39,723 nt of DNA from a virus. Lineage: Duplodnaviria > Heunggongvirae > Uroviricota > Caudoviricetes. Positions 5,580 through 7,470 of the stretch are shown piece by piece (within the stretch, counting starts at the first letter, position 1; each line of letters begins with the position of its first letter). The position numbers were made by a program, and so were the translations under genes. The notes under the pieces are model-generated. The model had not been told where the DNA came from and made no database searches. It saw only the letters and a program-made list of their open reading frames with translations. The stretch lies in IMG/VR virus record IMGVR_UViG_2537562231_000011. One strand, given 5' to 3'.

Positions 5580-7307
5580 ATGGCGACGTTACGTGAACTG
5601 ATTATCAAAATTTCGGCAAATTCACAGTCATTCCAGTCGGAGATCCAGCGAGCGTCCCGTATGGGCAGTGAATATTACCGGACCCTGCAGAATGGCGGGC
5701 GTCAGGCCGCTGCGGCAGCCCGGGAGCAGCGACGTGCCCTGGCAGAACTGAACAGCCAGTTGACGGAAATCCGCGCTTCGGCTGTCGGAATGACCGGTGC
5801 GTTTGCCGGTGCCTTTGCCACCGGACACCTGATTTCACTGGCGGATGAGTGGAGTTCCGTGAATGCCCGTCTGAAACAGGCATCACAGTCATCCGATGAA
5901 TTTTCGTCATCACAGAAAGTGCTGATGGATATCAGTCAGCGGACAGGTACCGCTTTTTCGGATAATGCGGCCCTGTTTGCCCGTTCGGCAGCCTCGATGC
6001 GTGAATATGGTTACAGTGCTGATGATGTGCTGAAGGTGACGGAGGCCATTTCCACGGGGCTGAAAATCTCCGGTGCCAGTACGGCTGAGGCGGGTTCGGT
6101 GATCACCCAGTTCAGCCAGGCGCTGGCACAGGGTGTGTTGCGCGGTGAGGAATTTAATTCGGTCAATGAAAGTGGTGACCGGATCATTCGTGCACTGGCT
6201 GCGGGTATGGGCGTGGCCCGTAAAGACCTTAAGGCGATGGCGGACGACGGCAAACTGACGGCGGATAAAGTCGTTCCTGCGTTAATCAGCCAGCTGGGGG
6301 TATTGCGTGATGAATATGCCGCCATGCCGGAAACGGTCTCTGACGGGATCACAAAGGTGGAAAACGCCTTTATGGCCTGGGTGGGTGGCGCGAATGAAGC
6401 CAGCGGAGCGACGAAAACGCTCTCCGGCGTGCTGAACGGTGTTGCCGGTAATATTGATAATGTGGCAACAGCCGCGGGGGCGCTGGTTGCCGTCGGGGTT
6501 GCCCGGTACTTTGGCAATATGGCCTCCGGAGCGGTGTCTGCCACGGCAGGACTTGTGACGGCAGCACGTAATGAAGTGGCACTGGCGGAAGCACAGCTCA
6601 GGGGGACGCAGATTGCCACGGCGCGGGCAAGGGCAGCCGTGTACCGTGCTCAGCAGGCCGTGGCGGCAGCCCGCGGGACGGAGATGCAGATTGCTGCAGA
6701 AGCCCGTCTGGCGGCCACACAGGAACGCCTGAACAGAAATATTGCTGCCAGAACCGCAGCCCAGAATGCGCTGAACAGTACAACGGCGGTGGGCTCACGT
6801 CTGATGACTGGTGCGCTGGGGCTGGTTGGTGGCGTACCCGGACTGGTGATGCTGGGGGCAGCAGCATGGTATACGCTGTACCAGAATCAGGAGCAGGCCA
6901 GGGAGTCAGCGCGCCAGTATGCACTGACGATAGATGAAATCGCGCATAAAACGCCGTCAATGTCTTTGCCTGAAGCCTCAGATAATGAAGGACGAACACG
7001 GGCGGCGCTGACAGAGCAGAACCGGCTGATTGATGAACAGGCCAGTCGGGTGAAATCCCTGCAGGAAAAAATCGCAGGATATCAGTATGTTCTGGCGAAC
7101 CCGGGCTGGACGACCGGTGACGGATTCATGATAAACCATCTGACATCGGTGAAGACCGTAACGGAAGGGCTTGCTCAGGCAACAGAGCAGCTTGCCGTTG
7201 AGCAGTCCCGTCTGGCACAGATGCAGGAAAAAGCGCAGTCCATTCAGGATGTGCTTGCCGGGCTGGAAGACCGTCGTGTGGCGTTAATTCGTCATATAAC
7301 CAGGTGA
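5580..7307 (+). pseudogene. Tail tape measure protein (lambda family), N-terminal 575 codons; 3' part displaced by the Mu-like insertion
   Basis: Ala/Gly-rich, coiled-coil-rich sequence typical of tape measure proteins, in the expected position. The ORF ends at a stop created at the junction with the Mu-like left end (~7305); lambda-type tape measures are considerably longer. Confidence 0.7.
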
Positions 7308-7470
7308 ATCATTTGATACCGACAAGGGGTTTAGTGAAAGGAGGTGAAATCACCTGTAAGATACTGAAATAAAACAGGTGATGGCTAGATGTGCGGATAA
7401 GGTCTATTTGATACCGATTGTGCAATAATTAGTCATTTATTATAAAATCGGCAACTCATTTGATACTGTG
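7305..7470 (+). promoter_or_regulatory. Prophage left end with three direct copies of a putative transposase-binding motif YATTTGATACYG
   Basis: Copies at 7309-7321, 7404-7416 and 7456-7468. One terminal site then a paired set ~95 bp away, resembling the L1 / L2-L3 layout of the Mu left end; CATTTGA resembles the CACTTGA core of Mu end sites. Confidence 0.5.

Follow-up and report, generated by a model that had tools for sequence, protein, structure and literature searches.

What do three identical repeats signify where a phage tail gene gives way to what looks like a second phage? The stretch of DNA considered here, the 39,723 nucleotides of IMG/VR virus record IMGVR_UViG_2537562231_000011 (hereafter, the window), holds three copies of the repeat YATTTGATACYG just downstream of an interrupted tape-measure gene of the lambdoid type. 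An earlier note, made from the letters alone, had read them as putative transposase-binding sites in a left end resembling that of phage Mu. Our analysis makes it very likely that they are the L1-L3 transposase sites in the left end (attL, 7295-7473) of an Sp18-like, Mu-like prophage that transposed into the lambdoid tape-measure gene.

The window contains exactly three exact matches to YATTTGATACYG, each on the plus strand, with starts at 7310, 7405 and 7457 and spacings of 95 bp and then 52 bp. The earlier note was right about the number of copies but set each start one base low (7309, 7404 and 7456). In shuffled sequence 0.01 copies are expected and none of 100 shuffles reached three; allowing up to two mismatches gave 11 matches in the window against 8.3 expected, i.e. 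only chance-level additions. A weight matrix of 22 columns, derived from all six end sites in a complete copy of the element (locus L009, described below), scored the three window sites at 21.6-22.7 and the next best position in the window at 14.1. Since the matrix was trained on the sites that it scored, these values give a contrast and not an independent test.

The exact left terminus of the element was established by aligning the left junctions of independent insertions with the intact tape-measure gene, and it lies at 7295. Ten independent insertions, located in ybaE, paaA, xdhA, elyC, citF, a lambdoid portal gene, dcuC, tauA, flgL and a Shiga toxin 1 (Stx1) phage, have common sequence only from T(A/G)TAACCAGG onward; this common start, T(A/G)TAACCAGGTGAATCATTTGATAC, corresponds to window position 7295, and the base preceding it varies with the target. 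From the other side, the tape-measure gene of hundreds of Stx-type and other lambdoid prophages is 100% identical to the window up to 7294 and no further. The genes upstream, from 327 to 7294, are those of lambdoid morphogenesis (portal, tail tube, tape-measure protein), and from 7295 on the window matches "Mu-like phage" insertions within Stx phages (LC727881, LC727895) as well as prophages at many E. coli loci. Therefore, the window contains one prophage inserted into another. None of the complete E. coli genomes searched spans this particular tape-measure/Mu-like junction.

The genes that follow the left end, a repressor on the minus strand, ner, A and B, stand in the Mu order, with Pfam matches for all four. 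Together with the two sides of the junction at 7294/7295, this bears out the left-end assignment made at the outset. The interval then proposed, 7305-7470, begins 10 bp inside the element. Measured from the true terminus, the three 22-mers occupy nucleotides (nt) 11-32, 106-127 and 158-179 of the element, one terminal and two subterminal and all in direct orientation, and the first motif begins 15 bp inside the element.

The stop codon of the tape-measure open reading frame (7305-7307) comes from the inserted element. The frame (5580-7307) is thereby shortened to 575 amino acids (aa), compared with 1,080 aa in phage 1717, and therefore the host prophage would be tail-defective unless complemented.

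Six end sites and their conservation

The right end of the element lies beyond the window because the element is about 38.6-39.3 kb long. A complete copy was found in E. coli 600029 as an insertion in ybaE (locus L009; element of 38,634 bp, L009 316-38949), and window positions 7293-39723 correspond to L009 314-32747 at 99.95% identity. Read inward, its right end is TATAGCGCGGCGATTTTTTTGATACCGATTTGCATTTCATTTGATACCGCTG...CAACTTATTTGATACTAAATCGG and contains three copies of the core, all pointing inward; measured from the right terminus, the 22-mers occupy nt 11-32, 33-54 and 68-89, all direct. Counted from the left terminus, the heptamer TTGATAC begins at nt 19, 114 and 166; counted from the right terminus, it begins at nt 19, 41 and 76. 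With nt 19 common to both ends, L1 and R1 are therefore in the same register, and the two tips of the element form an imperfect 28-bp inverted repeat (21 of 28 positions identical, counted by hand). In the 42 kb of L009, TTTGATAC occurs seven times, and six of the seven are end sites; likewise, the matrix placed the six end sites at 21.6 or above and the next best position at 14.1. These results establish a six-site architecture. The earlier note had looked to the other prophage end for inverted copies of the motif, and there are indeed three inward-pointing copies there, both in this nearly identical element and in every relative examined. For the window copy itself, the right junction is predicted to read ...CGCCGCGCTATA followed by GTCAGCAGG, a 4-bp duplication.

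The six sites are also present in LC727895 and in nine other E. coli insertions. Two relatives, those of STEC299 (in torZ) and strain 107 (in ydeE), have largely unrelated sequence from about nt 98 inward, yet both retain L2 and L3 with their spacing unchanged. Among these diverged E. coli relatives, 19 of 24 columns are invariant in the motifs and 17 of 68 elsewhere (Fisher p=5e-6).

We then looked beyond E. coli. When 50,697 phage records were searched for the left end by sensitive blastn, only LC727881 and LC727895 matched, and more distant ends were found through the transposase and the geometry of the motif. The ends of Yersinia phages vB_YpM_5 and vB_YpM_6 could not be aligned by blastn to the left end in the window, but in both phages TTGATAC starts at 19, 123 and 165 on the left and at 19, 41 and 76 on the right. 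Similarity between the two records stops immediately outside TATGAAG... and ...GCGCGCTTTA. A scan for the R1-R2 pattern, run on one genome per species, returned 96 matches of which about 80 were chance or unrelated repeat arrays; only those in Enterobacterales were used. Right ends were recovered in this way from Sodalis, Candidatus Sodalis endolongispinus, Klebsiella sp. WOUb02, Leminorella and Limnobaculum, and in every full-length right end of these genera R2 lies at +22 and R3 at +57/58. In the multi-copy assemblies (Sodalis sp. Tcar, Klebsiella sp. WOUb02 and Leminorella) the flanks differ immediately before a T(A/G)T(A/T)GCGCG terminus, which sits 17 nt upstream of TTTGATAC. The alignment of ends from related Mu-like prophages, which the earlier note had suggested as a check, thus gave the same layout in E. 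coli, Yersinia, Sodalis, Klebsiella, Leminorella and Limnobaculum, and this establishes that the architecture is conserved. A position, orientation and core that stay fixed amid changing surroundings across genera are the pattern to be expected of protein-binding sites held at set distances from a cleavage point.

Two observations were made in passing. Single assemblies can hold many right-end copies with different flanks: at least eight in the metagenome-assembled genome of Sodalis sp. Tcar (L028, L038, L064, L080, L091, L098, L099) and four in Klebsiella sp. WOUb02 (L042, L051, L053, L085), two of them on plasmids, which suggests recent bursts of transposition. In addition, TTTGATACYG arrays with a 22-bp period turned up in Prevotella, Bacteroides and other distant phyla (L050, L054, L105, L109, L070, L075, L106 and others); these may be the ends of unrelated mobile elements with a similar motif and the same period.

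We also determined the termini and the target duplication. The left tip is TA in the type to which the window copy belongs and TG in most E. coli relatives, and other genera alternate between the two; every E. coli copy has ...TATA-3' at its right tip. The target duplication was 4 bp in nine of the ten insertions (AACA, GTGA, TGTG, AGAG, TTCG, TAGA, ATTA, TTAC and CGCA) and 5 bp in the tenth (CGTCT). The ybaE empty site, rebuilt with a 4-bp duplication, was identical at 240 of 240 positions to intact ybaE in other E. coli genomes, and the portal-gene empty site, rebuilt with a 5-bp duplication, aligned without gaps across intact lambdoid portal genes. GenBank record LC727895 likewise annotates a 4-bp duplication. 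A uniform 5-bp duplication, obtained by shifting the boundary by one base, was considered and rejected: it fits one or two of the insertions, as by chance, and the ybaE empty site contradicts it. The citD insertion was excluded from this tally; the 8 kb retrieved from where its right end was expected contained neither phage genes nor right-end sequence. Termini of the TA type have been described before, in TA-TA elements of Leptospira, and so have duplications other than 5 bp, with 6 bp both in those elements and in Pseudomonas phage B3 (PMC8705779). Those duplications are longer than the 4 bp of the lineage in the window, and the hosts and lineages are unrelated. Neither the TA tips nor the predominance of 4-bp duplications goes beyond variation on a known theme; they are the only parts of the picture that might surprise a Mu specialist, and both are observations at the sequence level.

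Comparison with Mu and the probable binder of the sites

The Mu model has three sites at each end bound by the I-beta/gamma domains of the transposase, an enhancer bound by its I-alpha domain, CA termini and a 5-bp stagger (PMC3562280, PMC3362531). We read the Mu ends from AF083977, where the 22-mers are L1 at 6-27, L2 at 111-132, L3 at 151-172, R1 at 6-27, R2 at 28-49 and an inverted R3 at 56-77. Like Mu, the element in the window has three sites of about 22 bp at each end, of which the left ones comprise one terminal site and two subterminal sites, and R1 and R2 are exactly 22 bp apart. Also as in Mu, the repressor (on the minus strand), ner, A and B follow directly after the left end, and the DDE transposase is colinear with MuA and has an I-alpha-like domain. 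The resemblance of the one-plus-two geometry to that of Mu, which the earlier note had pointed out, therefore holds when the left-end positions of the two phages are set side by side.

The differences lie in the detail. The terminal site begins at nt 11 in the window element and at nt 6 in Mu, 5 bp further from the tip; L2 and L3 begin at 106 and 158 as opposed to 111 and 151; and R3, direct at 68-89 in the L009 copy, is inverted at 56-77 in Mu. The site consensus is TGTTTCACTTGAAACGCGAAAA in Mu and CAATTCATTTGATACCGATTAG in the window element. The outer half, TTCAYTTGA, is common to both, whereas the inner half is TAC(C/T)G... in the window element and ...RCGAAA in Mu. Hence the statement that the motif differs from that of Mu applies to the inner half of the site and not to the outer. 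In the same frame, the window L1 and the Mu L1 agree at 12 of 22 positions. A Mu matrix scored the sites of the window element at no more than 6.2, against a background 99.9th percentile of 5.5 (L1, in the same frame, gave the 6.2 and the others were at background level), and the matrix of window-element sites scored Mu's sites at no more than 9. Since the Mu matrix scores these sites near background, an end-recognition specificity distinct from that of Mu, as the earlier note had supposed, is plausible. The element is not phage Mu or D108 proper: apart from the half-site the ends cannot be aligned, its transposase shares only 23% identity with MuA, and its XRE-type repressor is unrelated to Mu c, with which it shows no similarity.

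The transposase aligns with MuA over its full length and colinearly (23% identity, E 1e-13). D308 and D374 align to D269 and D336 of MuA and, with E414 in an integrase-like IERLNR motif, are the DDE candidates; the N-terminal domain matches PDB 1TNS (7e-6) and is I-alpha-like. By homology with Mu, we infer that the transposase is the protein that binds the sites and that it follows the Mu reaction chemistry. L1-L3 would most likely be contacted by the part of the protein that lies between the enhancer-binding N-terminal domain and the DDE core. The left sites, the three inward right sites and probably an enhancer near the repressor/ner operators would then be brought together in a transpososome that pairs both ends. 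The transposase would nick at the terminal A of each 3' end, which at the left end is the bottom-strand nucleotide opposite 7295, and the freed 3'-OH ends would join the target DNA that the MuB-like ATPase has captured, at positions usually staggered by 4 bp.

Several points weigh against this interpretation. The right end of the window's own copy lies about 6.2 kb past the last base. Neither of two Mu hallmarks, TG...CA termini and a 5-bp duplication, is found. For the part of the transposase expected to read the sites, residues ~85-300, a phmmer search of PDB sequences (E up to 10) detected no sequence match to the solved I-beta/gamma structures of MuA, and AlphaFold2 run without an alignment on residues 85-300 gave a mean predicted local distance difference test (pLDDT) score of 48. 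Finally, both the repressor (53%) and the transposase (82%) accompany the motif in the Yersinia phages, and therefore co-variation does not single out the transposase.

A different binder was also considered. Another phage protein might bind the repeats while the transposase reads other bases; for example, the XRE-type repressor or Ner could act at the ends, or the repeats could be recognized as a packaging (pac) site by the packaging machinery. In Mu the pac site is located within the left end, the Yersinia phages have conserved the repressor together with the motif, the spacer between L1 and L2 is unusually invariant and has repeats of its own, and a palindrome in the operator region contains TTGATAAC. 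However, each end carries the motif, in inward orientation and at the same register, an arrangement that a transposase needs and a left-only pac signal does not. Moreover, the motif is unchanged in E. coli relatives that have unrelated sequence past about nt 98 and repressor genes that differ (by annotation only), and the outer half-site fits the MuA consensus in the same 22-mer frame. We therefore consider another binder very unlikely.

It could also be that the end sites are genuine but that the window copy is a dead relic, damaged or without a right end, in which the repeats lie idle. The position of the right end outside the window and the citD relative described above would agree with this. 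Against it, the 32.4 kb present are 99.95% identical to a complete copy with a clean duplication, and the window copy has kept L1-L3, the terminus and the reading frames of A and B intact. Furthermore, ybaE, elyC and citD hold near-identical copies of the TA type, and others of this type sit in paaA, xdhA and flgL; near-identity at several loci implies recent activity, and a relic is accordingly improbable to a high degree. That the three copies are a functionless chance or low-complexity repeat, as the AT-rich, non-coding nature of the region might allow, is ruled out for practical purposes by the expectation of 0.01 copies, the failure of all shuffles to reach three, and the comparative data, in which the positions are conserved across genera and the copies form islands in diverged sequence.

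Transposase sites thus remain the interpretation of choice for the repeats. How far the enzyme itself departs from Mu is a separate matter. The transpososome of the Sp18/vB_YpM lineage may have a non-Mu geometry, with TA-3' or CA-3' ends, a site lying 5 bp (half a helical turn) outward, a direct R3 and a stagger of 4 bp or occasionally 5 bp; we put this forward tentatively, as a possibility that we lean slightly against. If these were properties of the enzyme, the lineage would offer a natural comparison on stagger length and end recognition in enzymes of the MuA and retroviral-integrase types.

Distribution of the family and features around the left end

Of 5,426 complete E. coli genomes, 233 (~4%) carry the left end, O157:H7 among them, at 284 places in all, with up to four per genome and in many different genes. 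This establishes that the element is mobile. The window element is 93% identical to the annotated Mu-like phages of LC727881 and LC727895, and the O157:H7 copy examined is 38,756 bp long, compared with 38,759 bp for Sp18 of strain Sakai (PMC7430833). Sp18 DNA is packaged without circularisation, as expected of a transposable phage (PMC2669165), strain-specific integration sites have been reported (PMC7430833, PMC10132054), and Mu-like phages inside Stx phages have been described as similar to Sp18 (PMC10132054). Some Sp18-type members also sit in prophage genes. In Sp18 of O157:H7 Sakai and the Mu-like phages in Stx phages (LC727895, LC727881), the left end is 88-100% identical to that of the window over the first 170-200 bp, and right-end site positions, core motifs, gene order and length (38.6-39.3 kb) agree among Sp18-type members and the window element. 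The window copy belongs to the minority TA type of left terminus and has a different immunity region (~78% identity there). The element is thus a member of the known Sp18-like family, and its end sites are an ordinary feature of a known phage group. In the searchable literature we found no description of the end sites of this lineage, and a full-text search for the motif string returned only unrelated primer sequences. The exact boundaries can serve in annotating these transposable prophages, which are widespread in E. coli and Shiga toxin-producing E. coli (STEC) and often disrupt genes, including those of Stx phages; the six-site map could be used for building mini-elements or for testing end recognition by a distant MuA relative.

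vB_YpM_5 and vB_YpM_6 are isolated, infective Mu-like phages of Yersinia, classified in Muvirus (PMC10434027). They share with the window element the core motif and the same or close registers, and their termini are apparently TA; their transposase is 82% and their repressor 53% identical to those of the window. Their L1-L2 spacer resembles that of Mu itself (by eye, unscored). The C-terminal tail of their transposase agrees in its last 28 residues with that of MuA, which contacts MuB and ClpX. In vB_YpM_6 (L019 4554-6647) the identity over these residues is complete, whereas the rest of the protein is about 25% identical to MuA; the window transposase has a different tail. We take the MuA-type tail as a sign of module exchange among Mu-like phages.

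The features of the window and the duplication loci are listed in Table 1.

Table 1. Features at and around the left end of the Sp18-like prophage, in window coordinates unless a locus is named
Feature	Position	Strand	Sequence or basis
Truncated lambdoid (Stx-phage-type) tail tape-measure gene, insertion target	5580..7294	+	Pfam TMP_3, Phage_HK97_TLTM; phage 1717 alignment
Predicted left copy of 4-bp target duplication, GTCA	7291..7294		4-bp duplications in 9/10 insertions; intact target ...TTCGTCAGCAGG
Sp18-like Mu-like prophage, part inside window	7295..39723	+	~84% of element; right end outside
Left terminus	7295..7304	+	TATAACCAGG; flanks diverge just before 7295; terminal dinucleotide TA (Mu, TG)
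L1, candidate terminal transposase-binding site	7305..7326	+	TGAATCATTTGATACCGACAAG; core 7310-7321; register shared with R1
Repeat 1	7310-7321	+	CATTTGATACCG
L1-L2 spacer	7327..7399		7327-7392 nearly invariant among E. coli relatives
L2, candidate site	7400..7421	+	AGGTCTATTTGATACCGATTGT; core 7405-7416; conserved island, fixed spacing in diverged relatives
Repeat 2	7405-7416	+	TATTTGATACCG
L3, candidate site	7452..7473	+	CAACTCATTTGATACTGTGGTT; core 7457-7468; conserved island reaches upstream to CGGCAAC
Repeat 3	7457-7468	+	CATTTGATACTG
Candidate immunity repressor, XRE/HTH_3 type	7541..8086	-	Pfam HTH_3 E 2e-4, 21.8 bits, slightly under 23-bit curated cut-off
Ner-like regulator	8272..8502	+	Pfam HTH_35, 1e-21
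MuA-family DDE transposase, 695 aa, presumed reader of L1-L3	8505..10592	+	Pfam Mu-transpos_C 2e-17, HTH_Tnp_Mu_1 1.7e-8
MuB-like AAA+ target-capture ATPase	10665..11606	+	Pfam Phage-MuB_C, AAA_22
Duplication loci	7291-7296; L009 312-316 and 38946-38953; L001/L003, L005/L023, L007/L013, L008/L014, L016/L021, L017/L022, L122-L124

The spacer between L1 and L2 has features of its own. Its near-invariant part stays so even in relatives that diverge completely from about nt 98 of the element, and it contains a 9-bp inverted repeat, ATCACCTGT (7349-7357) and ACAGGTGAT (7374-7382), with a DNA fold z of -2.5. Three of the nine window copies of CAGGTGA fall in the left end, at 7301 (within the terminal 10 bp), 7350 (minus strand) and 7375; no motif of this type was seen at the right end. 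The spacer is a candidate pac or host-factor site. Scans of 7295-7540 with Rfam, ARAGORN and promoter and terminator searches gave no RNA or transcription signal.

The intergenic region between repressor and ner (8033-8100, 8155-8177, 8211-8253) contains a near-perfect palindrome, AAACTTGATAACTAA/TTAGTTATCAAATTT, and several repeats of the CTTTCTTTTC/GAAAAGAAAG type, which are possible operators, or a possible transposition enhancer for the I-alpha-like domain, or both.

Two further observations concern the body of the element. At about 24753-24832 (L009 17774-17853), on the minus strand between head-morphogenesis and virion-morphogenesis genes, RefSeq annotates "tRNA-OTHER" in related prophages; ARAGORN and Rfam reported nothing at this place in the window. 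Close to the window's right edge, a 145-bp stretch at 39446-39589 has an 87% match, inverted, in L009 33679-33821, in the region just past the window. This second stretch adjoins a serine recombinase gene in the complete copy, and the inverted match is consistent with an invertible tail-fibre segment like the G segment of Mu.

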